64,000 bases of DNA. Source: Gammaproteobacteria bacterium (GTDB lineage: Bacteria > Pseudomonadota > Gammaproteobacteria > Eutrophobiales > Eutrophobiaceae). The notes beneath the pieces were generated by a model. It saw only the letters and a program-made list of their open reading frames with translations, was not told the DNA's origin and searched no databases. Both the position numbers and the translations under genes were made by a program. The stretch covers positions 65,388 through 129,387 of the forward strand of contig JAJDUB010000073.1 of NCBI GenBank assembly GCA_022826885.1, written 5' to 3'. Each line of letters opens with the position of its first letter. Position 1 is the first letter of the stretch. Shown in pieces: positions 6,226-64,000 of the stretch.

Positions 6226-6281
6226 AGCCCGAATTTTCCGCATTATAATACACGAACAGTTGTCCAGGAGAGGAAACCAGG

Positions 6282-7466
6282 TTGGAAAACAGAGTGGCGC
6301 ACCGCGCCGCAAACATCAAGCCCTCACCCACCCTCGCAGTTACCGCCAAGGCCGCGGAACTGAAAGCGGCGGGAAGGGATATTATTGCCCTGAGCGCGGG
6401 CGAGCCCGATTTCGACACGCCTGAACATATCAAGGAAGCCGCGATCAAGGCCATCCGTGACGGCAAAACCAAGTACACCGCGGCAGGCGGCATGCCTGAA
6501 CTCAAACAGGCGGTCGCGGACAAGTTCCGGCGGGAAAACGACCTTGCTTACAACCCGGACCAGGTCCTGGTCTCCTGCGGCGCCAAACACAGCATCTACA
6601 ACGTGATGCAAGCCCTGCTCAATCCGGGAGACGAGGTGATTGTCCCGTCGCCTTACTGGGTTTCCTACCCCGACATGGTGAAACTGGCCGGTGCGGAACC
6701 CGTGGTGATCCGGGCCGGGATCGAACAGCGTTTCAAGATCACCGGAAAACAACTGGAACGATCCATCACCGAAAATACGCGCCTGGTCATGTTCAACAGC
6801 CCGTCAAACCCGACCGGCGTCAGTTATTCCGATACGGAACTGGCGGAGCTCGCGGCGGTACTGGTGGAACACCCGGAAATCGTGGTCCTGACGGACGATA
6901 TCTATGAGCATATCCTGTGGGGGCAGGACGGTTTCAGGAACATCGTTAACGTGTGCCTGGAGCTGGCGGACAGGACGGTCGTCGTGAACGGGGTGTCCAA
7001 GGCCTACTCCATGACCGGCTGGCGCATCGGTTACCTGGGCGGTCCGCCGGCGCTGGTCAAGGCCGCGCAGAAGATTCAGTCGCAAAGCACTTCCAACCCG
7101 TCTTCCGTCTCCCAATACGCGGCCCTGGCCGCGCTGAACGGCGACCAGACTTATATCAACGAGAGCACGGCTATCTTCAAACAGCGTCATGACTTCGTCC
7201 TGGCCGGTCTGAACGCCATCGACGGCGTGGAATGCACCCCATCCGACGGCACGTTTTACAGCTTCCCCAATATGCAGGGCGTGATCGACAAGCTGGACGG
7301 CATCAACAATGATGTGGAACTGGGCGAATACCTGCTGGAACGGGCGGAAGTCGCCCTGGTGCCCGGATCGGCCTTCGGGGCAAAGGGCTACATGCGCCTG
7401 TCCTACGCCACCAGCATGGAAAACCTGGAAGCTGCGATAAAACGGCTGAGCGATGCGCTGGGTTGA
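6282..7466 (+). CDS. class I pyridoxal-phosphate aminotransferase (aspartate aminotransferase-like)
   Basis: 394 aa with [36 protein letters not shown] and the PLP-lysine motif [19 protein letters not shown] start at 6282; GTG at 6294 is an alternative. Confidence 0.9.
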
Positions 7467-24176: not shown

Positions 24177-24422
24177 TCATTCTTCCTGAGACTTTTCAGG
24201 TTCAGGGTCCGGTTTGTCGGCGGATCGGGTCTGCCTGGTAAACAGCGCTTTCAGTTTGTACCAGTATGTTTTGACAGTTAATCCCAACGCTACAAAAAAG
24301 CCGATGATTAACGACATGATGGCACTGCCTGAGCCCGGATCAATATAAGCGACGGCAGGTAACCAGGCCGTAACCAGAACGGCAAATACAATAAACCGGA
24401 CGACCCACATAATTCGTTTCAT
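24177..24422 (-). CDS. small two-TM membrane protein (hypothetical)
   Basis: 81 aa from ATG 24422-24420 (the ORF track begins at TTG 24434). It has two hydrophobic helices flanking YIDPGSGS and an acidic/basic tail. The ATGA start/stop overlap with the upstream giant gene argues that it is translated. Confidence 0.55.
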   Translation of the reverse strand: MKRIMWVVRFIVFAVLVTAWLPAVAYIDPGSGSAIMSLIIGFFVALGLTVKTYWYKLKALFTRQTRSADKPDPEPEKSQEE

Positions 24423-46900: not shown

Positions 46901-48266
46901 GCTTGATGGCGATGGTGGTGACGACATTCTGGAAGGTGGAGCCGGCGCCGACCGGCTGGAGGGCGGCGCCGGCATGGATACGGCAGTCTATCGGAATTCG
47001 AATGCAGCGATCACGGTTAATCTCGGCAACGGCACACTGATGGGAGGCCATGCCGAGGGTGATGTAATAATCAATATCGAGGGTATAGAAGGATCCGCTT
47101 ACGACGATGAGTTGACAGGCGATAACGGTCCCAACAGGCTGGAGGGCGGCGATGGTGACGATGAACTCAGGGGAGGTGACGGTAACGACCAGCTCCTTGG
47201 TGGCGGCGGTAACGACCTGCTGGAGGGAGGGGAGGATATAGATTTACTGGACGGCGGGCCGGGTACAGACACCGTGTCTTATGAAAATTCAACATTATCG
47301 GTAGATGTATCTCTGCTGTTTAACGGAGCTTCGACATTCAACTACAACGACGGGGAGGAACTTATCGACATTGAAAACGTAATCGGGTCTGATTACGGGG
47401 ATATTCTACGGGGTGATAGCGGTATCAATGAAATATATGGGGGCGGGGGTAACGATAACATTAACGGCCTCGCCGGTGATGACAGGCTTTTCGGTGAAGC
47501 CGGCGATGACCAGCTATGGGGACAGGCCGGCGCAGACCAGTTGCACGGCGGAGAGGGCGTAGATACGGTGGTGTATTGGTTTTCTGACGAAGCGGTGACG
47601 GTGAATCTCAAGGACGGCACGGCTCAGGGAGGTCACGCCGATGGTGATGTGCTTGTGGGTATCGAGAACCTGTGGGGGTCCGAGCATGATGACATATTGA
47701 CTGGCGACCATGGCGCCAACCGCCTGATTGCAGAACTCGGAAACAACGAATTCTACGGCAACGGTGGAGATGATGTGCTGGAAAGCGGCGCCGGCGCCGA
47801 CCTGCTGGACGGTGGTGAGGGCATGGATACGTTATCCTATAAGAGGTCAAGTGAAGGCGTGACGGTGAGCCTGTTGGAAGGCACCGCAGTGGGAGGTCAT
47901 GCGGAGGGTGATGTCTTTGTCAACGTTGAAAACATGGAAGGGTCTTTCCACGATGATGTACTGGTGGGTGATGACAAAGCTAACCGGCTATCGGGCTGGG
48001 TCGGTAACGACGAACTGGAAGGCGGAGAAGGCGCTGACCATTTCATATTCTCGTCCGGCAATAAAAACAGCACCATTCTGGATTTTACCGACAATGAGGA
48101 CTTGATAGACCTTACGGCCTTCCGGAATATTTCCGGCTTTGATAATCTCACCATAACATCTGACTCGGACGGCGTCACCATAAACCTGAGGGCCTACCGG
48201 GGGGGAACCATCCTGCTCGAGGGCTTCGACATCGCCAACCTCGACGCCTCCGACTTCATTTTCTGA
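43923..48266 (+). CDS. giant serralysin-type (M10B metzincin) zinc metalloprotease with about 1000 aa of RTX repeats and a C-terminal T1SS-type tail
   Basis: 1447 aa. It starts at TTG, preceded by GGAG. HEIGHALGLNH (44628-44660) and the Met-turn VMSYF mark the protease. From about 45135 to 48080 there are dozens of GGxGxDxL nonapeptides arranged in about ten larger units containing GGHAEGD.I..IEN..GS. The tail is ..ILLEGFDIANLDASDFIF. Confidence 0.88.
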   Translation: MAIIREDNGDARADDSTQYSIAPGDVFQGTLDTAGDTDWIKIELSAGTIYDISLDEVESDQFRLFNPNGGGGIYGPYLLPYSTLFRAPDSGTYYIAIARTNYDDSDNYEISFLEHPLSIASYDEIASYLKRSPDESYIYDVAPGGTLTANVTALTEDGQQLARWALDAWTDVTGIEFEFVDNNANISFDDDDLGSAYSSYTAVGGIKVSSHINVGADWLTTYGSGIDSFTFYAYLHEIGHALGLNHPGPYDGRFPDSIDKIFGNDSYQTTVMSYFRQDSDNFTEASFAIPVTPMIADIIAIQDLYGTPVDINPGNTLHGHGSNVEGYMAELFERWTGQGDSSFGNPVTLTLYDSGGIDTLDLSTDSSNQRVDLRPEGISDVYGLVGNLIIARDTLIENFIAGSGDDVVTGNDEANYLQGRGGNDELQGNGGNDVLEGGAGADRHEGGAGMDWVSYQKSNTAVTINLAQGTLRGGHAEGDVIIDIENVIGSDYGDVLEGDSGANWFDGGPGNDEISGNGGNDVLEGSAGADRLSGGAGEDVASYEQSDAAVTVRLHSGVVRGGDAEGDTFGAMVTVGYTDSNGEVQQETVPDIEHIRGSAFADLLAGDSRANRLEGGDGADRLYGGPGGGDDELWGGDGEDALFGGSGNDVLEGGPDADTLKGGSGADTASYAQSDAGVTVRLYDGTVRGGHAEGDDIADIENVRGSAHADILEGDESANRLDGADGADELWGNDGNDMLDGGDGDDLLEGGAGSDRLDGGTGVDWLSYAGSDGPVSVRLYDGYAARGHAEGDIISGFENLRGSDYSDALSGSGRANRLEGGAGDDQMWGGSGDDVLEGGAGADRLHGGSGADTVVYWKSDAAITINLEGGTGMGGHAEGDTIAEVENVEGSDHNDVLEGNGGINLLYGGAGNDELRGAGGDDILEGGAGADRLEGGAGIDSAIYQSSNEAVTVNISDGTATGGHAEGDVILGVEIIIGSEYGDTLIGGDGTDRLDGDGGDDILEGGAGADRLEGGAGMDTAVYRNSNAAITVNLGNGTLMGGHAEGDVIINIEGIEGSAYDDELTGDNGPNRLEGGDGDDELRGGDGNDQLLGGGGNDLLEGGEDIDLLDGGPGTDTVSYENSTLSVDVSLLFNGASTFNYNDGEELIDIENVIGSDYGDILRGDSGINEIYGGGGNDNINGLAGDDRLFGEAGDDQLWGQAGADQLHGGEGVDTVVYWFSDEAVTVNLKDGTAQGGHADGDVLVGIENLWGSEHDDILTGDHGANRLIAELGNNEFYGNGGDDVLESGAGADLLDGGEGMDTLSYKRSSEGVTVSLLEGTAVGGHAEGDVFVNVENMEGSFHDDVLVGDDKANRLSGWVGNDELEGGEGADHFIFSSGNKNSTILDFTDNEDLIDLTAFRNISGFDNLTITSDSDGVTINLRAYRGGTILLEGFDIANLDASDFIF

Positions 48267-52377: not shown

Positions 52378-53175
52378 TTGTCGAGGTATTATAACCTCAT
52401 GAACAGCAACAACTCAGGCAACGAAATACGGCTGCTGCCGGTGCGCGGCATGCCTGAAGTCATGCCCGGCGATGACCTGGCGGCGCTGTTGCTGGAAAGT
52501 TTGCATAAGCATCCGGTTGCCGATGGCGATATCCTGGTCGTTGCACAGAAGATCGTCTCCAAGGCGGAGAACCGGTACGTGGACCTGGCCGGGGTTACCC
52601 CTTCGGACCGGGCCCTGGAACTGGCCGGGGAAACGGGCAAGGACCCGCGCCTGGTCGAACTGATACTGTCCCAGTCAAAACGCGTGGTCAGGTACCGGCA
52701 GGACGTGCTTATCGTCGAACACAGGCTGGGATTCGTCCACGCCAATGCCGGCATCGATCATTCGAATATCCCGCAGGACGCCCGTTCGGAACGGGTGTTG
52801 TTGCTGCCGGAAGACCCCGATGCCAGCGCCGCCCGCATCCATGCCGCCATCAGGCAAACCTGCGGAGTAAACGCCGGCGTCATTATCAACGACAGCGCCG
52901 GGCGCGCCTGGCGCAACGGCGTGACCGGCATCGCCATCGGCGCCGCCGGCCTGCCCTGCCTGCTGGACCTGCGCGGCGAGGCCGACCTGCACGGGAACCC
53001 GTTGCGCGTGACCGAAGCAGGTATCGCCGACGACATCGCCGCCGCGGCCTCGCTGGTCATGGGACAGGCGGCCCAGGGGATACCTGCCGTGCTGGTCAAG
53101 GGCCTGGCGCTGCGCGGCCCGCACAATAATGCATCCGTCCTGATCAGGGACCCGGCCAAGGACCTGTTCAGGTGA
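52378..53175 (+). CDS. cofE: coenzyme F420-0:L-glutamate ligase
   Basis: LLPVRGMPEVMPGDDLAALL..GDILVVAQKIVSKAENRYVDL..IVEHRLGFVHANAGID.SN is typical CofE. The ORF-track start is TTG 52378; ATG 52399 is an alternative. Confidence 0.82.
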   Translation: MSRYYNLMNSNNSGNEIRLLPVRGMPEVMPGDDLAALLLESLHKHPVADGDILVVAQKIVSKAENRYVDLAGVTPSDRALELAGETGKDPRLVELILSQSKRVVRYRQDVLIVEHRLGFVHANAGIDHSNIPQDARSERVLLLPEDPDASAARIHAAIRQTCGVNAGVIINDSAGRAWRNGVTGIAIGAAGLPCLLDLRGEADLHGNPLRVTEAGIADDIAAAASLVMGQAAQGIPAVLVKGLALRGPHNNASVLIRDPAKDLFR

Positions 53176-53186
53176 CCCAGGATAAA

Positions 53187-53211
53187 GGGGACGGATTTAA
53201 AATCCGTCCCC
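53187..53211. repeat. REP-like palindrome GGGGACGGATTTAAAATCCGTCCCC
   Basis: A 25-nt palindrome between cofE and cofD. Confidence 0.7.
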
Positions 53212-53236
53212 GGAGCGTATATGTAATAATTCCCGT

Positions 53237-54190
53237 ATGAATCCATCGATCCTGGCTCTGTGCGGCGGCGTGGGCGGCGCGAAACTGGCTCTCGGACTCA
53301 GCCGGACCCTCAGGCCGGATGAACTCCTCATCGCCGTCAACACCGGCGATGACTTCCTGCACCTGGGCCTGCACATCTCACCCGACCTCGATACGGTCAT
53401 GTACACGCTGGCCGGCGCGGCGGACCCGGAACGGGGCTGGGGGCTGGCCGGCGAGACCTGGAACTTCATGGAAGCGATAGCCCGTTTCGAAGGTTCGGAC
53501 TGGTTCAGGCTGGGAGACAGGGACCTCGCCACCCATGTGTACCGGACCCGGGCCCTGCAACAGGGACTGGGACTGGCCGAAGTTACGAAGTCGCTCTGCG
53601 ATGCCTTCGGCATTGCGCACCGGGTCCTGCCCATGACCGACGACCCGTTGCAGACAATCATCGCAACCGATCAGGGAGACCTGCCGTTCCAGGATTACTT
53701 CGTGCGCCTGGATTGCCGGCCCCGGGTGCGGTCCGTCAGGTTCAACTGGGTCGAAATGGCCCGCCCGCATCCCGAATTTGCCGCCCTGCTCAACAACCGG
53801 GAACTGCGCGCCGTGATCCTGTGCCCGTCGAACCCGTTCCTGAGCATCGATCCGATCCTGTCCCTGGAAGGCGTCCGTCCGGGCCTGCAATCCTCCCCTG
53901 CGCCCGTGGTCGCGGTATCTCCCATCGTCGGCGGCAAGGCCCTGAAAGGTCCCGCGGCCAGGACCATGGAGGAACTGGGCATGGCGCCGGGCAACCTGGC
54001 GATCGCGGAATACTACCGCGACTTCCTTGACGGGCTGATCATCGACAGGATTGATGAACATGAAGCGGCGGCCATCGAGAAACTGGGGATCAAGGTGAAA
54101 ATCGTCGATACCGTCATGCGCTCCATGCAGGACAGGATTGACCTGGCCGAAACAACCCTGGAGTTCGCGATCGGGTTAACCCGCAGATGA
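53237..54190 (+). CDS. cofD: 2-phospho-L-lactate transferase (F420 biosynthesis)
   Basis: 317 aa with LCGGVGGAKLALGL, VNTGDDF.HLGL.ISPDLDTVMYTLAG and NPFLSI motifs, typical of CofD/FbiA. Confidence 0.88.
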   Translation: MNPSILALCGGVGGAKLALGLSRTLRPDELLIAVNTGDDFLHLGLHISPDLDTVMYTLAGAADPERGWGLAGETWNFMEAIARFEGSDWFRLGDRDLATHVYRTRALQQGLGLAEVTKSLCDAFGIAHRVLPMTDDPLQTIIATDQGDLPFQDYFVRLDCRPRVRSVRFNWVEMARPHPEFAALLNNRELRAVILCPSNPFLSIDPILSLEGVRPGLQSSPAPVVAVSPIVGGKALKGPAARTMEELGMAPGNLAIAEYYRDFLDGLIIDRIDEHEAAAIEKLGIKVKIVDTVMRSMQDRIDLAETTLEFAIGLTRR

Positions 54191-54191
54191 A

Positions 54192-54339
54192 TTATCCGCA
54201 GATGACGCAGATTAGCGCAGATGAAATGATGATTGTTATTCACATTTTAAGTTCAGTCGGTAGCAATATAATCAGTCAGGACACAGAATCACAGAAATAA
54301 TAAAAATAATCTGCGTTAATCTGCGTCATCTGCGGATAA
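54192..54339. repeat. 148-bp element: 31-bp near-perfect terminal inverted repeats built from reiterated CGCAGAT units, flanking an AT-rich 86-bp core (MITE-like or giant hairpin)
   Basis: The left arm is TTATCCGCAGATGACGCAGATTAGCGCAGAT (54192-54222). The reverse complement of the right arm (54309-54339) is TTATCCGCAGATGACGCAGATTAACGCAGAT, with 1 mismatch. The core is strikingly AT-rich compared with its surroundings. Confidence 0.75.
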
Positions 54340-54342
54340 CAT

Positions 54343-55080
54343 TCAATCGCAATCAAGGCGTTTCTCCCAGGCTTTCTGGTTGCGGCGGGCATCCTGGATG
54401 TACGGCGAGAGGCGGATCAGGAACAGCACGGCCCGGTTGAGCAGCGATCCGGGAAACTTCAAGGGCCGCTTGACGTCGATAAACAGCACCACCCGCCTGC
54501 CGCCGGTATTGTTTTCCACCCGGTGCCGGTAGGTGTCATCGAACACGATACAACGGCCTTCCTCCCAGGTACTGGTTTCCCCGCCCACCTCTATCCAGCA
54601 GTCCTGCCGCGGTTCGGGCACGATAAGGGCCAGGTGGCAACGTAACAGGCCGCGATAAGGCCCGCGGTGCAGGGGTATGTGCTTGCCGGGCGCCAGCACG
54701 GAAAAAAATGCCGTGAACATACCGGGTATCGACTCGAGGATGCGCGTGGTTTCCGGGCAGGCCTTGCAGTTGTTTTCCATCTTGTAACCGTATCCGTAAA
54801 GGAACCAGGACTTCCACTTGTCATCCCGGGAGATATTGTATTGATCGCGCGAGATGTCCTGGAAATTCGGGATGCGCTCGGGGGCCTCCAGCAACCGCTC
54901 CAGTTCCGCGCGCATCAATTTCCAGTCGGCCTCCAGGGTGCGCACCCAGGAAAATTCCGAGGGGGCAAGGAAAGGCGTATCGGGAACCAGCGAATACCTG
55001 ATCAGGATGCGCTCTATGCGCTTGATGAGCCACAGCCCAAGCGTTACGCTGGGCCGGCGTTTTTTCTTCTCTGTTGGCAC
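54343..55080 (-). CDS. aspartyl/asparaginyl beta-hydroxylase family protein (LpxO-like Fe/2-oxoglutarate dioxygenase)
   Basis: 245 aa. FSVLAPGKHIPLHRGPYRGLLRCHLALIVP..CWIEVGGE...WEEGRCIVFDDTYRHRVENNT matches the Asp/Asn hydroxylase (LpxO) family pattern. Confidence 0.8.
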   Translation of the reverse strand: MPTEKKKRRPSVTLGLWLIKRIERILIRYSLVPDTPFLAPSEFSWVRTLEADWKLMRAELERLLEAPERIPNFQDISRDQYNISRDDKWKSWFLYGYGYKMENNCKACPETTRILESIPGMFTAFFSVLAPGKHIPLHRGPYRGLLRCHLALIVPEPRQDCWIEVGGETSTWEEGRCIVFDDTYRHRVENNTGGRRVVLFIDVKRPLKFPGSLLNRAVLFLIRLSPYIQDARRNQKAWEKRLDCD

Positions 55081-55120
55081 TTCGGGTAACCGGTCGATTC
55101 AGTTCGGGATGTAGTGTACG

Positions 55121-56242
55121 TTAGGTGCGAAGCGGATTCAGAAACCTGCTGATAGCATCGGCGCCGCGTTCAGATGGCGGACCATCGGCTGTAGCAAATG
55201 CGGCGTCGATAAATACGTCCTGCTTTGGTCTGAATTTTTCATCGAACTCATGATGAGCTGATGCCAATACCGCCTCAAGATCGTCAATTTTGTCGATTAC
55301 CGGGCCCAGTTTCCAGAAGTCCATGGTTGACGCTTCAAGTCCGTTGGGATTCAGAAACACACAGGGACGGCGCCGATGATAGATGAACTCACAGACCTGG
55401 CTGGACACGTCACCCAGGTAGATATCAGCGGCTTGCGTGTAGCTCATATCGAAACAGCGTTGACTGCCCGTATCAATATGGATATTCGGCGCATCCCTGA
55501 AATCGTCCAGATTGATATTATCGTGATATCTCCTGTGTTTAAAGAGCCGGGCATGCGGCGCAAATATCAGGTTATAATCCTGGTTGTCTTTGAAAAAAGC
55601 AAGAATTTTCCGGCCCATTGGTATCCAGGAAGATTGCAGTCGATGAAAATGCGGCGTATACAACACAACAGGACGGTTATTCCTGAATAGTACGGGCGCC
55701 TCCGGCTTGATTTTCTGCAGGACTTCAAACTTGGGATAACCCACTATCTGACAACAATCTTCAGGCAACCTGTCCTTAAAGCGCTCGTAGTAAGACTGTC
55801 CCGGTACCAGGAGACAATCAAATTTCAACCTGCCCTTATTGAATGATGTGGGCCTGTCCCCCGCGCCGTGGCGGAGACCGATAAATTTAATACTGCGAAA
55901 AGAGGGCAACGCTTTTAATATGATGTAATTCTTTTCGGGCGCAATCAGTGCGTCATAAGATGCCAGTATCTCCAAATTTGCCATTAAAGCCAACGGCCGG
56001 TGGAGAAAGGGGAAACGCCTCGCCGCCCAATCAGCTATTCGACCCTGTTTTAACAACCGGAACCTGCATCGGTGATGCGGATATGCCGTAGCTATGCGTT
56101 CAGCCTCGTCCCGGGCTTCCATGGTGGAAAAAAGAAGTTCTGTCTGAAAATCGGGCCGCATTCGAGACAATGCGAAGGCAAAGGGAGCGCCGTGCAACAC
56201 CTGGTACGTCAGGTAATGATTAAACAGGAAGCCTACTCGCAT
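55121..56242 (-). CDS. TagB/TagF-like GT-B fold protein (putative polyol-phosphate transferase)
   Basis: About 373 aa. VGYPKFE, VVLYTPHF and IYLGDVSSQVCEFIY loosely match TagF-family motifs. ATG 56242-56240 overlaps the asnB stop by 1 nt; the ORF track starts one codon earlier at TTG 56245. Confidence 0.4.
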   Translation of the reverse strand: MRVGFLFNHYLTYQVLHGAPFAFALSRMRPDFQTELLFSTMEARDEAERIATAYPHHRCRFRLLKQGRIADWAARRFPFLHRPLALMANLEILASYDALIAPEKNYIILKALPSFRSIKFIGLRHGAGDRPTSFNKGRLKFDCLLVPGQSYYERFKDRLPEDCCQIVGYPKFEVLQKIKPEAPVLFRNNRPVVLYTPHFHRLQSSWIPMGRKILAFFKDNQDYNLIFAPHARLFKHRRYHDNINLDDFRDAPNIHIDTGSQRCFDMSYTQAADIYLGDVSSQVCEFIYHRRRPCVFLNPNGLEASTMDFWKLGPVIDKIDDLEAVLASAHHEFDEKFRPKQDVFIDAAFATADGPPSERGADAISRFLNPLRT

Positions 56243-58170
56243 CAATTCGATTGCGCCTCCAGCCAGGCTTGAAACATCAATACATTCCAGAGCGACCCGG
56301 TCCAGTCACCATGTCCCGAAAGATGCATATTCCATCTTTCGCGCACCATGGGCGGGTTAAGGAAACCTTCAGTGGCGAGCCGTTTTTCAGCCAGGAGATT
56401 TTCTGCCCAATCACGCAGCGATGTTTTCAACCAGTCCCCTACCGGGATCTTGAATCCTGTCTTGCGTCTATCCATCAATTGTTCAGGAACATACCTGTAA
56501 AGAACCTGCCGTAGCAGCCACTTTCGATCTTTTCTTCGAATCTTCTGATACCTGGGCAGACGCCAGACAAACTCCACAACCCGATGGTCGAGGATGGGGG
56601 TGCGAACTTCCAGTGAGACCGCCATACTGGCGCGGTCAACTTTGGTGAGGATGTCGTCCGGCAGGTAATTAATGGTATCCAGGTACTGTAATTGTTCGAT
56701 TGTATCGGCAAGGAGACCTTTTCTTGCAGCAGCCCACAAGATGTCGCCGGGGTCGCCCGCCCCGACAACCAGCTCCGCAGGGTCACTCCAGTCACTGATC
56801 AGCATTCGGTATAATTCTTCCGGCCCCGTCTTCAGAATATCAGCCAGCTTATACAACTTATGCCCCGCAAGAATGGTGTTCTTTCGTCCGGCAAGAGATT
56901 TCAGTGGGTTATTCCGGGCGAAGGAAGAGAGGCTTGTCAGGGCAGTTGCCATACCCCTGCCCAGGGAGCCATGGAACGGTTTACTCCACCGGCGCAATAA
57001 CTCAGCGGTCTGATAGCGGTTATAACCGGCAAACAACTCATCACCTCCATCACCGGACAATGCCACAGTGACGTGCCGGCGGGTCATCTGGGAGAGGAGG
57101 AAAGTCGGTATTTGTGATGAGTCGGCAAACGGTTCATCATAAATGGACGGCAGGTCCGGGATCACATCCCGCGCCTGGTTCGAATCGACATACAATTCCG
57201 TGTGGTCACTACCCAGGTGTTTTGCTATCGCTCTGGCATGGAGCGCCTCATTATAACTTGACTCATTGAAACCTATGGTAAAGGTTCTGACAGCCCGGGC
57301 ATCTGCCCTTTGCATAAGAGCCACTATTGTCGTCGAATCTATGCCACCGGAAAGAAACGCGCCGACCGGCACATCTGCAACTATGCGCCGCCTGACAGCA
57401 TCAGCCAGTAACTCGTCCAGTCTGCTGACGGCTTCGTAGTCGGGAGAGTGAACGGGCGCCGATCTGGCTTGTTCTATGGTGTTCGATATGCTCCAGTAAG
57501 CGCGGCTTTCGGGCTGTTGCCCTCTCTTGAGGGTAAGTATGTGGCCCGGCTCCAGTTTATGCACACCCTTGTATATACTGCGGGGCGACGGGATATACCT
57601 GTATTGCATGAAGGCCATCAGGGCAGCGCGATCAATCTGCGGCGTCCAGCCAGGGTGTTTTTTGATTGCTTTCAGTTCTGAGCCGAACAGGAACAGGTTG
57701 TCAAACGCGCCCCAATACAAAGGCTTGATGCCAAGACGGTCCCGGACCAGGGCCAGTCTGCATTCCTGCCTGTCCCATAACGCAAAAGCAAACATGCCGT
57801 TCAGTCTTCTCACGGCAGCTTCCACACCCCAGGCAGCGCACGCCTCCAGCACAACTTCAGTATCGGAGTGGCCGCGGAAACGGACATCACCAAGCTCTTT
57901 TCGCAGTTCTGTGGCGTTGTACACCTCGCCGTTGTAAACGATTACAAAACGTTCGCAGCACGAAACCATGGGTTGTCTGCCGGCCTGCGACAGGTCAACC
58001 ACTGCCAGACGGCGATAACCAAGCCCCAGGCCTGCCTGAACGTCTGACCACGTATCGGCATCATCCGGACCGCGATGTGTAATACTGTCAGCCATGGCAA
58101 ACGCCACCTGCCTGATCCAGGCAGCATCGCCTGTGCGTAAACCGTCAATGAATCCCGCTATCCCGCACAT
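56242..58170 (-). CDS. asnB: asparagine synthase (glutamine-hydrolysing)
   Basis: 642 aa with the MCGIAG N-terminal Cys2 nucleophile, the PP-loop FLSGGIDSTT and a full-length AsnB architecture. Confidence 0.9.
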   Translation of the reverse strand: MCGIAGFIDGLRTGDAAWIRQVAFAMADSITHRGPDDADTWSDVQAGLGLGYRRLAVVDLSQAGRQPMVSCCERFVIVYNGEVYNATELRKELGDVRFRGHSDTEVVLEACAAWGVEAAVRRLNGMFAFALWDRQECRLALVRDRLGIKPLYWGAFDNLFLFGSELKAIKKHPGWTPQIDRAALMAFMQYRYIPSPRSIYKGVHKLEPGHILTLKRGQQPESRAYWSISNTIEQARSAPVHSPDYEAVSRLDELLADAVRRRIVADVPVGAFLSGGIDSTTIVALMQRADARAVRTFTIGFNESSYNEALHARAIAKHLGSDHTELYVDSNQARDVIPDLPSIYDEPFADSSQIPTFLLSQMTRRHVTVALSGDGGDELFAGYNRYQTAELLRRWSKPFHGSLGRGMATALTSLSSFARNNPLKSLAGRKNTILAGHKLYKLADILKTGPEELYRMLISDWSDPAELVVGAGDPGDILWAAARKGLLADTIEQLQYLDTINYLPDDILTKVDRASMAVSLEVRTPILDHRVVEFVWRLPRYQKIRRKDRKWLLRQVLYRYVPEQLMDRRKTGFKIPVGDWLKTSLRDWAENLLAEKRLATEGFLNPPMVRERWNMHLSGHGDWTGSLWNVLMFQAWLEAQSN

Positions 58171-58186
58171 AATCCAGACTCACCTG

Positions 58187-59140
58187 TCATCGCAAAATTC
58201 TCTGTTTGACAAGTTTCAGGAACGCTCCCCAGCCGAACAGCAGGGGATAACGCCGCAGCCTCGGGGTGACCTCAATCTTCACGCCGGTATGCCGGCCGAT
58301 CTTCCAGGCGGCATAATCCACGCCATTGTCGAAGGTCAGGGCCGCCTTCAGCAGCCTCAATACCCACAGGAAGTGCCCGAGTCGGCGGCGGCGGCGCCAT
58401 TGCCTGTGCGACCTTCGGGTGGTTCCGGTATCGGCGAGGGAACGGTAGCTGTTATCATCCTCCCGGCGCAGCACAGTGCCGAGCGCGGGCAGGGCCGCGT
58501 CCAGCAAGGCGGTATAAGCGGCCTGGTTATAGGACGCCAGTTGCGCCGCCTTGGAGTCCGGTTCGGCCCGGAACTCGGTCGAATAGGACAGGGATAACGC
58601 ATTGGTCCAGATCGTTTCCACGTCGCCGACCTTTCCCTGCAGGGTCGGCAACGTCGTCCTCAGCAGCGTCAGCACGGAATGCGCCATCAGTTCCTCGAAT
58701 TCACGGCGCACGGCTTCGGTCCGGGCGTAAAGTATGCGCGCCGGCTGTGCGAAGCGCCCCCACAGGTAGGAGTGGAATCCGCGGCGGATGCCGTCGCGGA
58801 AATCCGCCATGCTTATGACAGCCAGTTTCAGCCGCACCGGCGCGCCCCCGGTGGGGATTTCCCGGTAAAACACGTTAGGGGGCAGGCAGGCGTTGAGGAG
58901 TGCCAGGTAACGCTTGTCGTAACTATTGCGGTAATTGTCGACAATCGCGAAAACATCGGCGATGCCGTCCTCCATGTTCTCTCCCCTTGCACAGGAACCG
59001 TAAAACAGGATGCCCTGCAAGGCGGCGCCGTAGGTTTCCCTGACCGCCTCGATGATCAACCCGCAGGAATCCGGCACGGGGCCGGCGCATTGCTGCGCGA
59101 TACGGCCGATCAATGCCTGTGGTATGTCCTGCCGAACCAT
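58187..59140 (-). CDS. hypothetical protein, possible nucleotidyltransferase fold (weak Tam41/Mmp37-like resemblance)
   Basis: 317 aa. ILFYGSCARGENMEDGIADVFAIVDNYRNSY is reminiscent of a GS...D nucleotidyltransferase-fold N-terminus. Its start abuts the stop of the upstream CDP-alcohol transferase gene. Confidence 0.3.
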   Translation of the reverse strand: MVRQDIPQALIGRIAQQCAGPVPDSCGLIIEAVRETYGAALQGILFYGSCARGENMEDGIADVFAIVDNYRNSYDKRYLALLNACLPPNVFYREIPTGGAPVRLKLAVISMADFRDGIRRGFHSYLWGRFAQPARILYARTEAVRREFEELMAHSVLTLLRTTLPTLQGKVGDVETIWTNALSLSYSTEFRAEPDSKAAQLASYNQAAYTALLDAALPALGTVLRREDDNSYRSLADTGTTRRSHRQWRRRRRLGHFLWVLRLLKAALTFDNGVDYAAWKIGRHTGVKIEVTPRLRRYPLLFGWGAFLKLVKQRILR

Positions 59141-60424
59141 TCAGGTAAAGATTTTCAACGCCAGCCTGCTGCAGTATCCCCCCTCTTCCGCAGTACGGGG
59201 GGCGACGCCGGCAAGCCAGGGTTCAAGCGCTCCGCGCTCGCGTTTCACCTTCCAGCCCATGCCCAGCCTGGCCAGCAGGAACAGGGTGGACAGGACGTGC
59301 CAGGCGACCACAATCACCAGGCCCGCATCGGGCCGGCCCGCAAGCAACGCGGCGGTCAGGATAAGCAGGTTGGGATTGCGCCGGGCGGTAATCAATCGAT
59401 TCAGGGAATCGGCCGGCTGCCACAGGAAAATCGGGAACGGCGCAACCCATTTTTCAAAAACCCCCTCACAGAACCGGCCGCCGATGTAGCCGGCAAGCAT
59501 GACCGCGACCAGCGGCGCCAAGGCGAGAGGGAGCGAGGCAACGCCCAGCCCCACAGCCCAGGCGATATACCAGAGGGGTGGATGGATCAGGTCCAGTCCA
59601 TGGTCCAGCAAGTCACCAAAGCGGCTCGAGGTAAGCGTTACCCTGGCCAGCTTGCCGTCCACGGTGTCCAGGAAGGTCATGAACCAGCCCAGCGCCAGTC
59701 CGGCAGCGAAATTACCGTACCAGAACGCGACTCCGGCCAGGACTGCCAGCACCAGGCTCAACCCGGTAACCTGGTTCGGCCTGATGCCGAGCCGGGCGCA
59801 GACCTTTGTCGCCTGCCTTGCGGGGACGGGCCAAACCCACTTGGTGACCAGGTCGGTCACCCCTTTGTAGGAACTGCTGAACAACTCCTGTTCCAGTTCA
59901 TCCCGGTTGTCCGTGCGGATTTGCCATACCCTGGCCGGCTCGTATTTTTTCAGGTGGTTATCATAGGGGTTGACCAGGTCATCGGGATTAATCCCCGGTG
60001 GCAATTCCCCTGCGGGGCCGGTTTCGAATATCACGGGGTCGTATATCTCGGACCGCAACGCAACAACGGCGTCGCTGCCCGGTTCGTACAACGCAAAGTC
60101 ATCATCGAAGCCGAGGATGGCCTGCAGCAGGCGGATGTGGAACAGGTAGTCCCCTCGCAGGAAAATAACCGGCGTACCGGGAGGGGCAGGCGTCTCGTCT
60201 GTGACGAACGTCACGTCGTTCATGCTTTTCAGCATGCGGGTCAATCTAACACGACCGCTCAGTCCCCATATCTCAATCGGGCTGTCGCCGATGATCCGTA
60301 CATGGCGATTCGTGATACCCTGTGCCTTATCCAGGTTAAGGAATCCCAACAATATCTCCTGAATAGATGACAGTGAAATCCGGTTTGACCATAGCGCACC
60401 TCTCGGACCCGCACCTGACCTCAC
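59141..60424 (-). CDS. CDP-alcohol phosphatidyltransferase family membrane protein with a ~190-aa soluble N-terminal domain
   Basis: DTVDGKLARVTLTSSRFGDLLDHGLD fits D-x2-DG-x2-AR-x8-G-x3-D-x3-D exactly, and multiple TM helices follow. The start is uncertain. TTG at 60349, preceded by AGGAG, would remove the 58-nt overlap with the divergent gene. Confidence 0.8.
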   Translation of the reverse strand: MRSGAGPRGALWSNRISLSSIQEILLGFLNLDKAQGITNRHVRIIGDSPIEIWGLSGRVRLTRMLKSMNDVTFVTDETPAPPGTPVIFLRGDYLFHIRLLQAILGFDDDFALYEPGSDAVVALRSEIYDPVIFETGPAGELPPGINPDDLVNPYDNHLKKYEPARVWQIRTDNRDELEQELFSSSYKGVTDLVTKWVWPVPARQATKVCARLGIRPNQVTGLSLVLAVLAGVAFWYGNFAAGLALGWFMTFLDTVDGKLARVTLTSSRFGDLLDHGLDLIHPPLWYIAWAVGLGVASLPLALAPLVAVMLAGYIGGRFCEGVFEKWVAPFPIFLWQPADSLNRLITARRNPNLLILTAALLAGRPDAGLVIVVAWHVLSTLFLLARLGMGWKVKRERGALEPWLAGVAPRTAEEGGYCSRLALKIFT

Positions 60425-61299
60425 TGCACCATGTTACATGGCGTGAATTACTCAATAAACGCGTTCTCGGCTATCTCTCCTGGCGGGTGAAACGGCGCCG
60501 GTCCCACAGCCGGGAGGTCCTGTCCCGTACACTTGCCGACCTGGCGGGCAGGCAGCCGGACCACCTTGTCATCAGCGGAGATTTCACTCACCTCGGCACG
60601 GCAATTGAATGCCGGGAAGCCGAAGCCTGGCTAAACAGCGTCGGCGCGCCCGATTATATATCAATTGTGCCGGGGAATCATGATCGTTACATAGACACTG
60701 ATATCGCCGAAACAATCGGGCGCTGGCGCGCCTGGATGCAGAACGACCCCGGCCAACGGGATAAGGGGACGGACTTTCCTTACCTGCGGGTGCGCGGCCC
60801 GGTGGCGATCATCGGCCTTTCGACTGCCGTACCCACGCCGCCCTTCTTCGCCAGCGGCAGGCTGGGCGGGGAACAGTTGCGGCGTCTCGACCGGCTGCTT
60901 GAAACGGCTGCGCAGCGGGGCCTGTACCGCATCGTGACCCTGCATCACAGCCCGCACTCCATGGGCTTCAGGCGCGGTCTGTCCGATGCGGACCAACTGT
61001 TGTCGACCCTGGCGGGTCCCGGCGCGGAGTTGATTATCCACGGCCACGGCCACCGGCAGATGCACGCAATGCTGCAGGCCGGCGAGCGGCGCATCCCGGT
61101 ATTCGGCGTGCCCTCCGCCTCGGCCAGCTACGACGATCCGGCAAAATCCCCCGGCTATAACGTTTACGAGGTAACCCGGGCGCAGGAAGGCTGGCGGACC
61201 CGCGTCAGGTCGTTCATCCTTGATGAGGAAACGCAGCAATTTGAGCAGGTGCTGGATAAAGTAATTATGCCACTTTCTGCAACCACAGGCTGCCTATGA
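60367..61299 (+). CDS. metallophosphoesterase (calcineurin-like)
   Basis: 310 aa with IAHLSDPHL, ISGDFTHLG, VPGNHD, LHHSP and HGHGH motifs. Confidence 0.85.
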   Translation: MTVKSGLTIAHLSDPHLTSLHHVTWRELLNKRVLGYLSWRVKRRRSHSREVLSRTLADLAGRQPDHLVISGDFTHLGTAIECREAEAWLNSVGAPDYISIVPGNHDRYIDTDIAETIGRWRAWMQNDPGQRDKGTDFPYLRVRGPVAIIGLSTAVPTPPFFASGRLGGEQLRRLDRLLETAAQRGLYRIVTLHHSPHSMGFRRGLSDADQLLSTLAGPGAELIIHGHGHRQMHAMLQAGERRIPVFGVPSASASYDDPAKSPGYNVYEVTRAQEGWRTRVRSFILDEETQQFEQVLDKVIMPLSATTGCL

Positions 61300-62329
61300 A
61301 CATCAGGGCCAGTCCGGGCGTCAGCGCCACCAGGGCATGGTTGAGGTCCAGTAATAATCCGGCATTGGACAAAATCTGGTCAAGCAGGTAAACACAGATG
61401 CCGGTGATGCCCGCCAGTACCAGGCGGTAGCCGATACCCGTCTGTCTCGAACCGAACACGAACGGGACCGACAGCAACAGCATGGCAAGCATGATCAGCC
61501 CGGCGCCGAATTTTCGCCAGTAAGCCAGGGAGATCTCATCATGCTGCTGTCCCGTGTCTTTCAGGTAGCGAATGTGGTGATATAACTCCGTCGGAGACAG
61601 GCTTTCTGCCGGCCTCGTCAGCTTGGACACCTCCTCGGAACTCAGGAACGGGCTCCAGTTCAGCCGCGCCGCAGACCTCGTGTCGACCTGTGTGCCGTCA
61701 AATTCCTTCATGGTGACGCCATGCAGGCTCCACCGGTCGTTGCTGATTATCTCCGCTCCCTGTGCATGGACATAAGCGGCCAGCAGGCCCTGGTCATCCA
61801 GGGTAAATATTTCCACGTCCTGCACATAGGAAGCGCGGATCGCTTCCCCAAGCCGCAATACCTGGTTTTCATCCCGCGTCCAGATGCCCAGGTCCTCGCC
61901 CAGTTCCGCGCTCTGGTTCAGGGCTTCCAGGCGATGGGCAATGGCCTTGCTCTGCATTTCCGGGGCAATGACCTGCTCCAGCGCACCCAGCAGCAATAAC
62001 AGGCACAGGCCGACTTTGAAAGACGCCAGGCTGATGCGCGCAGGTGTCAATCCGGCGGCGCGCATGGCGATAATTTCCGAATTCAGCGCCAGGCGCCCCA
62101 GCGCAATCACATTGCCTATCAGCGCGATAAACGGGAGCAGTTGAATCAACCTCCTGGGCAGCAACAACAGGACAATGTAAAACGCATCCTTCATGCGATA
62201 AAAACCCTGACCGACATCCTCCATCTGGTCTATAAGGTCGAAAAAGCTGAACAGCGGCAACAGGATCGCGGCAGCGATCAACAGCCCCATGCTGATCCGG
62301 CGCATCAGGTATGTCTCAACGGTGCTCAT
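61265..62329 (-). CDS. lptG: LPS export ABC transporter permease LptG
   Basis: YjgP/YjgQ family with ..YLMRRISMGLLIAAAILLPLFSFFDLIDQMEDVG.. and a periplasmic beta-jellyroll region. I trimmed the start to ATG 62329, since the ORF-track start at 62428 would overlap lptF. It follows lptF. Confidence 0.88.
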   Translation of the reverse strand: MSTVETYLMRRISMGLLIAAAILLPLFSFFDLIDQMEDVGQGFYRMKDAFYIVLLLLPRRLIQLLPFIALIGNVIALGRLALNSEIIAMRAAGLTPARISLASFKVGLCLLLLLGALEQVIAPEMQSKAIAHRLEALNQSAELGEDLGIWTRDENQVLRLGEAIRASYVQDVEIFTLDDQGLLAAYVHAQGAEIISNDRWSLHGVTMKEFDGTQVDTRSAARLNWSPFLSSEEVSKLTRPAESLSPTELYHHIRYLKDTGQQHDEISLAYWRKFGAGLIMLAMLLLSVPFVFGSRQTGIGYRLVLAGITGICVYLLDQILSNAGLLLDLNHALVALTPGLALMFIGSLWLQKVA

Positions 62330-62369
62330 ATACAATATCAGGCTTCTCGTTACCGGCGGATTGCCCCTG

Positions 62370-63449
62370 CTAACCGAATCTCTGCAGCAATCGCCGGTAA
62401 AATCTCTGGAACAGGTACAGGGAAACAACCAGCGCCATTAACGCGTGCAACCACCAGACACCGGGTATCTCGTCCATCACGCCCTGTTCCACCCAGGTCT
62501 GGGCAACGCCGCTGAGGTTGTAATACACCGCAAAAATCAGTGCGGCCATGAACACTCTTTCATTCTTCCCCTGCCTGGGGGAGGAATGGCTCAGGGGAAT
62601 CGCGATCAATGCGAGCAGCAGCGTGGCAAGCGGCCGGGACAGGCGCCACTGGGCCTCGGCTATATCCTGCGGAGTATCGGATTCGAGCAGGGCCGGTGTC
62701 GCCTGGGCCTTGCGTTTGTAGCCAATGCTCACTTCGGGGTCTTCATGAAACCTGATCAGCTTTTCGTAGCGAGCCACCTCGTCTTCCGGGGAATTACGCT
62801 CCAGCCTGTACAGCAGTCCGTCGTCGAGTGTTACCCGCAGCCTGCCGTCCTGCAGACTCTTGTCCTGCCTGGCGCTCACCGCCGCGGTAATCTCGCTGAC
62901 TTCCCCCTTGCGCGTATAGTAAAATATCCTGGACATCTCGCCGTTCGTCCTGTCCTTGCCGGCAATGTAAATCACCGTGCCGGTATCTTCGTTACCGTAG
63001 AAACGCCCCTCCTGGAACCGGTCGGTATTCAAATCGGCCTTGGCCCGGGCATCCAGGATGTAACTGTTCTGGTAGGCCCAGGGACGGCCGTACAGGGACA
63101 GCGCGCCCACTGCCAGGGCGATCGGTATGGAGATCACGATAACCGCTCCGATAATGCGTTGATTACTGCCGCCGGCGGCATTCAGGGCCACTATTTCCCG
63201 GTCCCGGTGCAACCTGCCCAGGCCGATAACGACGGAAGTGTAAAGGGCTATCGGGACCAGGACCTCCAGGGCGATGAACGTCTTCAGCAGGATCAGTTTG
63301 ACCATGAAGTAGATGCCCAGGGTCTCCGTTACGGCCTCAGCCAGGTATCTCGCGCCGCTGAAACAGGCAAACAGGGCAACCAGGATGATCAGTACGAAAC
63401 TGAAAGGCCTGAGCACTTCCCGTATGATATAGCGTTCAATATGCGACAT
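62370..63449 (-). CDS. lptF: LPS export ABC transporter permease LptF
   Basis: 359 aa with MSHIERYIIREVLRPFSFVLIILVALF.., YjgP/YjgQ family. Paired with lptG. Confidence 0.88.
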   Translation of the reverse strand: MSHIERYIIREVLRPFSFVLIILVALFACFSGARYLAEAVTETLGIYFMVKLILLKTFIALEVLVPIALYTSVVIGLGRLHRDREIVALNAAGGSNQRIIGAVIVISIPIALAVGALSLYGRPWAYQNSYILDARAKADLNTDRFQEGRFYGNEDTGTVIYIAGKDRTNGEMSRIFYYTRKGEVSEITAAVSARQDKSLQDGRLRVTLDDGLLYRLERNSPEDEVARYEKLIRFHEDPEVSIGYKRKAQATPALLESDTPQDIAEAQWRLSRPLATLLLALIAIPLSHSSPRQGKNERVFMAALIFAVYYNLSGVAQTWVEQGVMDEIPGVWWLHALMALVVSLYLFQRFYRRLLQRFG

Positions 63450-63567: not shown

Positions 63568-64000
63568 ATGACTAACGCTATTATATTGAGCGCGGGTCAG
63601 GGTAAAAGGCTGCTGCCCCTGACCGAGACTTACCCCAAGTGCATGCTGTCCGTCGCCGGCAAAACCATCCTGGAGTGGCAGGTGCGAACATTACTGGCGG
63701 CTGATATCGGCAGGTTGCACATCATCACCGGGTTTAATTCGGACCTGGTTGAGGAACACATCAATGATCGGTTCGGCGCCGACCTGGACAGGATAAACAT
63801 AGTTTTCAATCCTTTCTACAACGTATCCGACAACCTGGCGAGTTGCTGGATGGCCCGTCACGCCATGGATGAGGACTTTATCCTGTTGAACGGTGACACG
63901 CTGTTTGAACCTGCCCTGCTGGACACCGTTCTCCGGTCCCCCGCGGCGCCGGTCACCCTGACCATCGACTACAAGGACTGTTACGACAATGACGACATGC
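63568..64000 (+). CDS. nucleotidyltransferase (sugar/alcohol-phosphate NTP-transferase family), 5' fragment running off the right edge
   Basis: My own translation from ATG 63568 gives MTNAIILSAGQGKRLLPLTETYPKCMLSVAGKTILEWQ...LLNGDTLFEP..., the glycine-rich NTP_transferase N-terminus (LSAGQGKRL). It is open to the end of the window. Confidence 0.75.
   Translation, partial: MTNAIILSAGQGKRLLPLTETYPKCMLSVAGKTILEWQVRTLLAADIGRLHIITGFNSDLVEEHINDRFGADLDRINIVFNPFYNVSDNLASCWMARHAMDEDFILLNGDTLFEPALLDTVLRSPAAPVTLTIDYKDCYDNDDM

Follow-up and report, generated by a model that had tools for sequence, protein, structure and literature searches.

An lptFG-linked gammaproteobacterial operon that probably assembles and exports a ceramide phosphoglycerate-type sphingolipid

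Which lipid is served by a compact operon that lies next to the lipopolysaccharide (LPS) export genes lptG and lptF in an uncultured gammaproteobacterium of the family Eutrophobiaceae? The operon occupies the minus strand at 54343-60346 of a 64,000-nt stretch of contig JAJDUB010000073.1 (assembly GCA_022826885.1), which we call the window and to which all positions refer unless a relative's locus is named. It encodes a cytidine diphosphate (CDP)-alcohol phosphotransferase, a nucleotidyltransferase-like protein, a glutamine-dependent AsnB-type amidotransferase, a TagF-like protein and a hydroxylase. A first, sequence-only reading had treated these five genes as one pathway for modifying an envelope lipid or LPS and had been unable to map the combination to any described pathway. 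We find that the core genes do map to one, namely the Caulobacter locus for the sphingolipids ceramide phosphoglycerate (CPG) and CPG2. Our preferred reading, to which we give a probability of about 0.72, is that the locus constitutes the head-group assembly and export part of a CPG/CPG2-type phosphosphingolipid pathway, with lineage-specific additions. The lipid is most likely a sphingolipid and not the LPS or lipid A proposed earlier, nor a glycerolipid. What the comparison establishes directly is the gene content, homology, synteny and insertion history of the locus, and this history overturns the idea of five genes forming a single conserved unit, two of them, asnB and the TagF-like gene, being a foreign cassette.

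The genes of the locus, with lengths in amino acids (aa), are as follows.

54343 to 55080, minus strand: OlsC/LpxO-family lipid acyl hydroxylase of the Fe/2-oxoglutarate Asp/Asn-hydroxylase family, 245 aa, last gene of the operon (PF05118).
55121 to 56242, minus strand: TagF-like GT-B phosphotransferase candidate, 373 aa, accessory, part of the inserted cassette (profile match, AlphaFold2 model).
56242 to 58170, minus strand: glutamine-dependent AsnB-family amidotransferase, 642 aa, accessory, part of the inserted cassette (PF00733, GATase_7, TIGR01536).
58187 to 59140, minus strand: CpgC-like nucleotidyltransferase of the Tam41/Mmp37 type, 317 aa (profile match, synteny).
59141 to 60346, minus strand: CpgA-like CDP-alcohol phosphotransferase with an N-terminal cytoplasmic nucleotidyltransferase-like domain, 402 aa (PF01066).
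60367 to 61299, plus strand: CC_1158-like calcineurin-type metallophosphoesterase, divergent from cpgA (PF00149).
61265 to 62335, minus strand: LptG, called as 356 aa on the contig L092 (TIGR04408).
62370 to 63449, minus strand: LptF (TIGR04407).
63569 to 64000, plus strand: CpgD-like (CC_1152-like) cytidylyltransferase, cut by the end of the window; 242 aa in L001 and L092 (PF00483/PF12804 in the L001 copy).

The tight packing of the five open reading frames was reproduced together with their coordinates and gaps: the cpgA-like and cpgC-like genes abut at 59141/59140 (0 nt), 16 nt separate the latter from asnB, the TagF-like ATG shares 1 nt with the asnB stop at 56242, and 40 nt lie between the TagF-like gene and the GTG of the hydroxylase. 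The TagF-like frame itself extends over 55121-56245, giving 374 aa from a TTG or 373 aa from the ATG at 56242. While the CDP-alcohol gene previously placed at 59141-60424 is real, its start is most likely the TTG at 60346, which follows an AGGAG and is called so on a contig with an identical lptF, and not the GTG at 60424, which would make it overlap the divergent phosphoesterase gene. Promoter and terminator scans of the locus gave chance-level results only and were uninformative on transcription units.

To place the operon among its relatives, one genome per species was scanned with a profile of the Tam41-like protein; at least 596 relatives were found and 80 loci kept, onto which the window proteins were mapped. 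In all, 90 related loci, labelled L001 and so on, were compared. The linkage of cpgA and cpgC to lptFG is present in most of the 80 loci, which come from other species, and is conserved from Nitrosomonadaceae to Desulfobacterota. The 17 loci from uncultured gammaproteobacteria that form the window's clade contain the Nitrosomonadaceae genes and, in divergent orientation, a metallophosphoesterase gene and a gene for a 242-aa NTP-transferase, with the hydroxylase directly after the Tam41-like gene and cofD/cofE thereafter; the divergent position of the phosphoesterase recurs in all 17 and in the Desulfococcus locus L083 and in L087. With cpgA-cpgC-lptFG in most of the 80 loci and the hydroxylase behind cpgC in 17, the arrangement lies far outside what chance would give. 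The earlier reading was right that the operon belongs to an envelope-lipid pathway and that its adjacency to lptFG is meaningful. The co-occurrence extends to cpgA-cpgC-lptFG and, within the clade, to the hydroxylase, but not to asnB and the TagF-like gene, which stand at this position only in the window and in its nearest relative, L001.

The pathway to which this core corresponds has been dissected in Caulobacter. The Caulobacter locus, its conservation in Nitrosomonas and some gammaproteobacteria and its association with lptFG have been published (PMC9393093, PMC11324152, PMC12275187, bioRxiv 10.64898/2026.04.12.717747), so that the core locus, its beta- and gammaproteobacterial conservation and the Lpt link are not new; what is new here is the presence of TagF-like, AsnB-type and OlsC/LpxO-type genes in such loci, of which we found no description in the literature searched. 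The CC_1152-CC_1168 locus (cpgA, cpgB, cpgC, cpgD, CC_1153, CC_1158, bcerS and lptF2/G2) comprises the same families as the locus described here, likewise with LptF/G inside it. CC_1152 (CpgD) is a LicC-like CTP:phosphoglycerate cytidylyltransferase which makes CDP-glycerate, CC_1153 is a CofC-like nucleotidyltransferase, CC_1154 is bCerS, CC_1155/1156 are LptG2/LptF2, needed for sphingolipid export, and CC_1158 is a calcineurin-like phosphoesterase that contributes to CPG2 formation (PMC11324152). CC_1159 (CpgA) is a PF01066 protein with an N-terminal cytoplasmic domain, CC_1160 (CpgB) is a ceramide kinase, and CC_1161 (CpgC) has the Tam41 InterPro domain IPR015222 and is required for CPG. 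Caulobacter is the only organism with genetics for cpgA, cpgB, cpgC, cpgD and CC_1158 and biochemistry for CpgB and CpgD; mutants of its locus lose CPG/CPG2, and nothing else has been reported.

The connection runs through Nitrosomonas. In Nitrosomonadaceae we find, all in one direction, a 392-aa acyltransferase-like (bCerS-like) gene, a CC_1153-like NTP_transf_3 gene, lptF, lptG, the CDP-alcohol transferase, a DAGK_cat kinase and the Tam41-like gene. This string is exactly Neut_1100-1106, listed as the orthologues of CC_1154, CC_1153, CC_1156, CC_1155, CC_1159, CC_1160 and CC_1161 (PMC11324152 Table S2D), and the gene order of the window is that of this Nitrosomonas cluster. Because the window genes are 42-50% identical to, and syntenic with, the Nitrosomonadaceae genes, we assign 59141-60346 as cpgA-like, 58187-59140 as cpgC-like, 60367-61299 as CC_1158-like and 63569 to the window end as cpgD-like, putative identities that rest on sequence and synteny. 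The protein families of the window are those described for the Caulobacter locus proteins, and the family assignments originally made for all five operon genes were borne out by Pfam and NCBIfam, by profiles and by structure models.

The cpgA-like protein matches PF01066 in Pfam (E=2.2e-10) and is 45-50% identical to the Nitrosomonadaceae gene at the Neut_1104 position. Its catalytic motif, D226-x2-D229-G-x2-A-R234-x8-G243-x3-D247-x3-D251, is as perfect as first described and invariant in 30 homologues. Foldseek, given the AlphaFold2 model (pLDDT 80), returns AF2299 (4o6n) as the top match, with E=1.5e-11 over 372 alignment columns that include the N-domain. Since both the N-domain and the membrane domain superpose on AF2299 and IPCT-DIPPS, in an AF2299-like two-domain fold, the extra soluble N-domain (about 150 residues) noticed earlier is, judged from the model, the degenerate cytidylyltransferase-like domain known from these archaeal enzymes; the GxGxR-x-PK nucleotidyltransferase signature is absent, and only W26, G27, G30 and R33 are invariant. 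The likeness to Archaeoglobus AF2299 and IPCT-DIPPS covers the whole architecture and fold (TM 0.57-0.68, ~370 columns) and the catalytic motif on the transmembrane helices, likewise intact, whereas the identity is only 12-17%, the canonical signature is missing from the cpgA-like N-domain, and the context differs, solute synthesis in their case and lipid and Lpt genes in ours. One could nevertheless speculate, from the full-length fold, that the operon encodes a soluble-solute pathway of the IPCT/DIPPS type, in which the NTP-transferase makes a CDP-alcohol that an AF2299/DIPPS-like enzyme condenses with a second alcohol phosphate, and the 242-aa CpgD-like nucleotidyltransferase does weakly match the IPCT half of NF041135. 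This match, however, reaches 55 bits against a cut-off of 580, and the scores in general are far under cut-offs; together with the missing N-domain signature, the lipid genes and lptFG context in every lineage and the lipid phenotype of the Caulobacter orthologue, this makes such a pathway extremely improbable. Identities of the PF01066 enzyme as a PIP synthase, DIPPS or cardiolipin synthase were rejected on scores far below the cut-offs and on the sphingolipid gene context.

L004, L014, L015 and about eight Nitrosospira-type loci (e.g. L017, L025, L027) have no cpgA-like gene at its usual place, with lptG (or the phosphoesterase) on one side and the kinase/Tam41-like genes on the other. Such loci resemble the 'CPG-only' genotype reported for Zymomonas and, because these CPG-only gene sets exist without it, cpgA behaves as an optional module. 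The opposite case is found in Desulfococcus multivorans (L083, 9157-12606), where the Tam41-like gene has one cpgA-like PF01066 paralogue on each side and is accompanied by an MsbA-like ABC transporter and the complete set of ceramide genes; the two paralogues hint at a separate transferase for each phospho-alcohol transfer in some lineages. Between the window and L001, cpgA and cpgC (58187-60346) are 87% identical and all neighbouring genes 93-99%, which could reflect local recombination or faster evolution of the head-group enzymes.

For the 317-aa cpgC-like protein, earlier described as nucleotidyltransferase-like at its N-terminus, the family evidence is collective. It has about 2,400 homologues, many with precomputed matches to PF09139 (Tam41/Mmp37). 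A profile of 22 family sequences matches S. pombe Tam41 (6IG2) at E=3.2e-5, PF09139 is matched by 16 of these 22 at E<=0.01 (best E=4.3e-10), and the protein is 42-48% identical to the Nitrosomonadaceae gene at the Neut_1106 position. A similar pairing of a Tam41-fold nucleotidyltransferase with a membrane enzyme of the CDP-alcohol phosphotransferase family is known from mitochondria, where Tam41, a CDP-diacylglycerol synthase, precedes Pgs1/Crd1, and the shared logic would be the activation of a lipid phosphomonoester by cytidine triphosphate (CTP). The window protein is, however, very distant from mitochondrial Tam41 (15.5 bits; profile E=3e-5), and its substrate is probably ceramide-1-phosphate instead of the phosphatidate used in mitochondria. 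In Caulobacter, moreover, genetics places the PF01066 step behind that of the Tam41-like enzyme, and the donor proposed for it is CDP-glycerate and not the activated lipid.

The neighbours named in the sequence-only reading were all recovered. The divergent metallophosphoesterase (60367-61299) matches PF00149 at E=1.2e-13; LptG scores 290 bits with TIGR04408 (cut-off 240) and matches LPS LptG structures over its full length at E=1.6e-37, and LptF scores 317 bits with TIGR04407 (cut-off 230) and matches LPS LptF structures, again full length, at E=1.8e-34. The end gene is CpgD-like: its full-length L001 copy matches PF00483/PF12804, and its best PDB matches include LicC, a CTP:phosphocholine cytidylyltransferase, as described for CpgD. 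By family, then, the NTP-transferase that had been suspected of being a CDP-alcohol synthase would be a CpgD-like donor synthase. In the Nitrosospira locus L075 the CpgD-like gene adjoins a HIT gene, as in Neut_0267/0268, the orthologues of CC_1157 and CC_1152 (PMC11324152 Table S2D), and a HIT/nucleotidyltransferase pair is also present in L001. The GC content at third codon positions (GC3) of the partial cpgD-like gene (63569-63999) is 0.54, as low as in the asnB/TagF-like cassette and unlike lptF/lptG (0.74-0.75), and the gene is absent from this position in Nitrosomonadaceae; it may be a later acquisition in the clade.

Several observations weigh against the sphingolipid assignment. The homology to Caulobacter is not direct but chained through Nitrosomonas and PMC11324152 Table S2D, and even in Caulobacter itself what CpgA and CpgC do biochemically is still to be proved. 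Taken alone, the 317-aa protein scores 15.5 bits with PF09139 (E=0.011), below the 24-bit gathering threshold. LptF and LptG look canonical, of the LPS type, rather than like a dedicated paralogue; in Caulobacter LptF2/G2 are a divergent second copy, and no LptC2 or flippase was seen here. Unlike the Caulobacter locus, the operon has no ceramide kinase: a tblastn search of the 64-kb window with the N. europaea DAGK_cat protein yielded noise only. No spt, cerR, acpR or aasR was found in the window with Desulfococcus proteins as queries, nor is there a bCerS or a CC_1153-like gene inside it. As for the accessory genes, the TagF-like protein has no Pfam match even at E<=10, and other copies of the cassette stand far from any cpg genes, with polysaccharide genes or mobile elements as neighbours, so that its target may be a glycan.

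The relatives supply much of what the window lacks. A DAGK_cat kinase stands between cpgA and cpgC in 60 of the 80 loci; it is not there in the window's closest relatives and is missing from the operon in most of the gammaproteobacterial clade. In the genome studied here the ceramide kinase may be encoded elsewhere. With no spt, cerR or acpR in the window, it is relatives that carry the case for a supply of ceramide in this genome. L001 and L090, which share the window's layout, have bCerS-like and CC_1153-like genes immediately past lptF, followed by an acyl-AMP ligase; in the same broad clade, aasR, cerR and acpR adjoin bCerS in L015, and spt, acpR, cerR and aasR are all present in L059, while aasR appears at the edge of L090, L004 and L014. 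In Desulfococcus multivorans (L083) a TagF-like homologue lies beside the two PF01066 genes, the Tam41-like gene, a metallophosphoesterase and lptG/lptF, and adjoining these are an acyl-AMP ligase, a reductase, an acyl carrier protein, an alpha-oxoamine-synthase-type aminotransferase and the MsbA-like ABC transporter, a gene set which is a signature of bacterial ceramide synthesis. The Aminotran_1_2 protein at 6282-7466 of the window was considered as Spt and is not Spt-like, and a bridge to the sphingolipid operon of E. coli UTI89, sought by distant blastn, gave no match.

These gaps, together with the families themselves, leave some room for a glycerolipid. The operon could build or modify a glycerophospholipid or lipid A, with a Tam41-like CDP-diacylglycerol synthase feeding a PIP-synthase-like enzyme before amidation and hydroxylation, or it could carry out an LPS modification exported by LptFG. 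Tam41 is a CDP-diacylglycerol synthase in mitochondria, the transferase domain finds its best matches, in NCBIfam and the PDB alike, among archaetidylinositol-phosphate and PIP synthases, CpgB reportedly phosphorylates diacylglycerol as well as ceramide, LpxO acts on lipid A, and neither spt nor a kinase gene is in the window. Yet these matches lie far under the curated cut-offs (e.g. 57 against 180 bits), no inositol-phosphate synthase was seen nearby, bCerS and ceramide-backbone genes flank the cluster in relatives, and the synteny is one-for-one with a locus whose mutants, as reported, lose CPG/CPG2 only. We therefore regard a glycerolipid or lipid A target as improbable and retain the sphingolipid.

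The first of the lineage-specific additions is the hydroxylase. It belongs to PF05118 (E=2.5e-53, 180.6 bits against a threshold of 22.6), so the family named at the outset stands; within it, the protein scores higher with OlsC (NF052565, 248 bits, cut-off 450) than with LpxO (NF033391, 145 bits, cut-off 500) and fails both cut-offs. It aligns with OlsC over nearly its full length, and LpxO (a lipid A 2-hydroxylase) and OlsC (an ornithine-lipid 2-hydroxylase), of the same family, are both acyl-chain hydroxylases of outer-membrane lipids. The gene was not seen in the Nitrosomonadaceae loci examined and has no counterpart in the Caulobacter locus, which likewise lacks the TagF-like gene and asnB; in the window's clade it is a stable, clade-wide operon addition. 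In L003 the sequence GTGA holds both the hydroxylase GTG and the stop of cpgC, which points to translational coupling in relatives, and because the gene is operon-coupled to cpgC its substrate, unlike that of LpxO or OlsC, is predicted to be a sphingolipid. In Caulobacter the amide-linked acyl chain is hydroxylated by an unrelated DesA-family enzyme encoded elsewhere, and the simplest reading of the sequence evidence would make the window protein an acyl hydroxylase that is not orthologous to this enzyme but serves the same class of lipid. No work joining LpxO/OlsC-type hydroxylases with sphingolipids emerged from a literature search.

Downstream, the gap between the convergent cofD and hydroxylase genes is filled by a 31-nt inverted repeat (TTATCCGCAGATGACGCAGATTA...) at 54192-54339, whose arms are 97% complementary and 86 nt apart. 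At the corresponding site of L003, L011, L001 and L090 the termini are conserved, with the interior in two unrelated versions, and an Rfam search of the 54192-54339 element gave no match; it could be a MITE- or REP-like element (miniature inverted-repeat transposable or repetitive extragenic palindromic, respectively) or a bidirectional terminator. The F420 genes cofE/cofD beyond it (window 52378-54190) stand directly beside the cluster in all 17 gammaproteobacterial loci. The CC_1153-like NTP_transf_3 protein is a weak CofC match, and no cofC was seen in the window. The F420 and sphingolipid pathways, compared at window 52378-54190 and L001 1824-2621, may share chemistry of the NDP-phosphoglycerate type, or the neighbourhood may be a coincidence.

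The second addition is the cassette, a 3.1-kb insertion in which asnB and the TagF-like gene separate cpgC from the hydroxylase gene, precisely where these two formerly overlapped. It is compositionally foreign, with a GC3 of 0.59 for asnB and 0.54 for the TagF-like gene against 0.72-0.82 for the neighbours. AsnB is a complete enzyme by its N-terminal MCGIAG nucleophile and SGGIDS PP-loop, its PF00733 and GATase_7 domains and its TIGR01536 score (487 bits, cut-off 267); it is not of the E. coli type (279 against 499), and the closest specific model, the PEP-CTERM amidotransferase TIGR03108, scores 575 bits, under its cut-off of 817. The 373-aa protein has a GT-B fold (AlphaFold2 model, pLDDT 89.8) for which the top Foldseek matches are generic GT-B enzymes. 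The only family-specific signal is TagF: the family profile has S. epidermidis TagF as its top PDB match (E=1.2e-3), with the motifs GYP(K/R), YxP(H/T) and D(V/Y)SS in the alignment, in accordance with the TagF-like label given from the letters. A minority of the homologues match PF04464, and some sources name them TagB/SpsB-family.

With the TagF/TagB polymerases of teichoic acids and Gram-negative capsules the protein shares the GT-B fold, the GYP(R/K), YxPT/H and D-x-SS motifs and its best family-specific match, and a common use of a CDP-activated three-carbon phospho-alcohol is likely on this evidence. It differs from them in falling below the Pfam threshold, in that the only linked donor synthase is CpgD-like (CDP-glycerate), and possibly in its acceptor, for which a lipid head group is a candidate. 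The window yielded no tagD-type CDP-glycerol synthase; the cytidylyltransferases in the vicinity belong to the CpgD-like and CC_1153-like types.

The distribution of the cassette is where the evidence divides. AsnB-TagF-like pairs, 59-81% identical, occur elsewhere in the related metagenomic genomes L084, L085 and L091, and in reversed order in L089. On this basis one could envisage that, while the core makes a sphingolipid, the cassette decorates O-antigen or capsule with phospho-glyceramide or glycerophosphate, and sits in the operon through a chance landing or through a shared pool of CpgD-made CDP-glycerate. The foreign composition and the clean insertion between two formerly overlapping genes would suit this, as would the neighbours of the other copies: an integrase in L084, a flippase and a sulfotransferase in L085, transposases and a Polysacc_synt flippase in L091 and a GT4 glycosyltransferase gene in L089. 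The closest specific AsnB model is associated with exopolysaccharide, TagF-like enzymes are classically glycopolymer enzymes, and D-glyceramide 2-phosphate is known on an O-antigen. Against this, four independent gene arrangements, very distant lineages among them, have the TagF-like gene within a cpg cluster or next to it, namely window/L001, L090, L083 and L087: it directly follows cpgC, without asnB, in L090, and it abuts the cluster in L083 and L087. In the window the cassette is spaced operon-tight with cpgC and the hydroxylase, and in L091 an spt fragment lies beside it. We consider decoration of a glycan unlikely but worth keeping in view. Because the TagF-like gene recurs beside cpg clusters, a real link to the sphingolipid pathway is suggested; in L013 and L086 a distance of 7-9 kb separates it from genes of the cluster. 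The L091 fragment (6177-6458) encodes 94 aa, 51% identical to Spt, just upstream of the Polysacc_synt-AsnB-TagF-like set and amid transposase/resolvase genes, and the cassette seems to move together with sphingolipid-related DNA or to insert into it. No work joining TagF-type enzymes or asparagine synthetase with bacterial ceramide genes was found in a literature search.

Under the sphingolipid reading, the pathway would run as follows. Ceramide would be made by spt, acpR, cerR, aasR and bCerS, whose genes lie just beyond the window in relatives, and phosphorylated by a CpgB-type kinase encoded outside this window to give ceramide-1-phosphate. The Tam41-like CpgC would then, by family analogy, use CTP to convert ceramide-1-phosphate to CDP-ceramide, leading to CPG; the CpgD-like enzyme would supply CDP-glycerate, from which the CpgA-like phosphotransferase would add a second phosphoglycerate with the assistance of the CC_1158-like phosphoesterase, and LptB2FG would export the lipid to the outer membrane. 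The three extra genes probably alter the head group or the acyl chain. The OlsC/LpxO-family dioxygenase would (2-)hydroxylate an acyl chain of the lipid, the TagF-like protein would transfer a further CDP-activated phospho-alcohol, and AsnB would amidate the glycerate carboxylate and so lower the negative charge of the lipid. Phosphoglycerate from CDP-glycerate is the most plausible choice for the TagF-like step, since this is the only donor with a linked synthase and no tagD-like gene was found in the window.

Such additions gain plausibility from the D-glyceramide 2-phosphate of the Providencia alcalifaciens O22 O-antigen and from Zik et al., who did not exclude higher phosphoglycerate polymers. 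The Providencia unit is a precedent for an amidated phosphoglycerate, as would be expected from a phosphoglycerate transferase acting with an AsnB-type amidotransferase; it is, however, a substituent of a polysaccharide, known here by its chemistry and not its genes, and hence only a lead. An amidated, hydroxylated phospho-alcohol head group is a reasonable prediction for this lineage. The specific version, in which the TagF-like protein is a CDP-glycerate-dependent phosphoglycerate transferase that extends CPG and AsnB amidates the product to a ceramide phospho-glyceramide, is a tentative proposal that we consider more likely wrong than right.

The remainder of the window is rich in surface functions. 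A large surface-polysaccharide cluster at 9428-43761 contains rmlABCD-type genes, a WbpM-like dehydratase, GT2 and GT4 glycosyltransferases, Wzm/Wzt-like ABC genes and a 1701-aa protein (24419-29524) combining a sulfotransferase, two GT1 domains and a methyltransferase. It also encodes a second, unrelated PF04464 glycerophosphotransferase-like protein (22271-23434), to which the window TagF-like protein has no BLAST similarity, beside a sulfatase-family membrane protein (20232-22325) and a YidC-like protein (19064-20218). Two RTX-repeat (HemolysinCabind) proteins are encoded at 3470-4147 and 43923-48266, one of them 1447 aa long with nine matched repeat stretches and a serralysin C-terminal-like region.

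In Caulobacter, CPG2-type anionic sphingolipids partly substitute for LPS and are its polymyxin target. The loci compared here place head-group genes wrapped around an apparently housekeeping lptFG in uncultured gammaproteobacteria, several of them sponge-associated, as their isolate names suggest, in Nitrosomonadaceae and in Desulfobacterota, with different lineages bolting different accessory enzymes onto the pathway. The accessory genes are candidates for new sphingolipid head-group chemistry, in which further phosphoglycerate units would be added, charge would be removed by amidation and acyl chains would be hydroxylated. If the proposed route is correct, it would be a sphingolipid counterpart of lipid A remodelling and would involve two new activities, namely the use of CDP-glycerate by a TagF-family enzyme with a lipid as acceptor and the amidation of a lipid head group by an AsnB paralogue. 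The organism would then carry a charge-tuned outer-membrane sphingolipid, analogous to the changes in lipid A charge that blunt cationic peptides.

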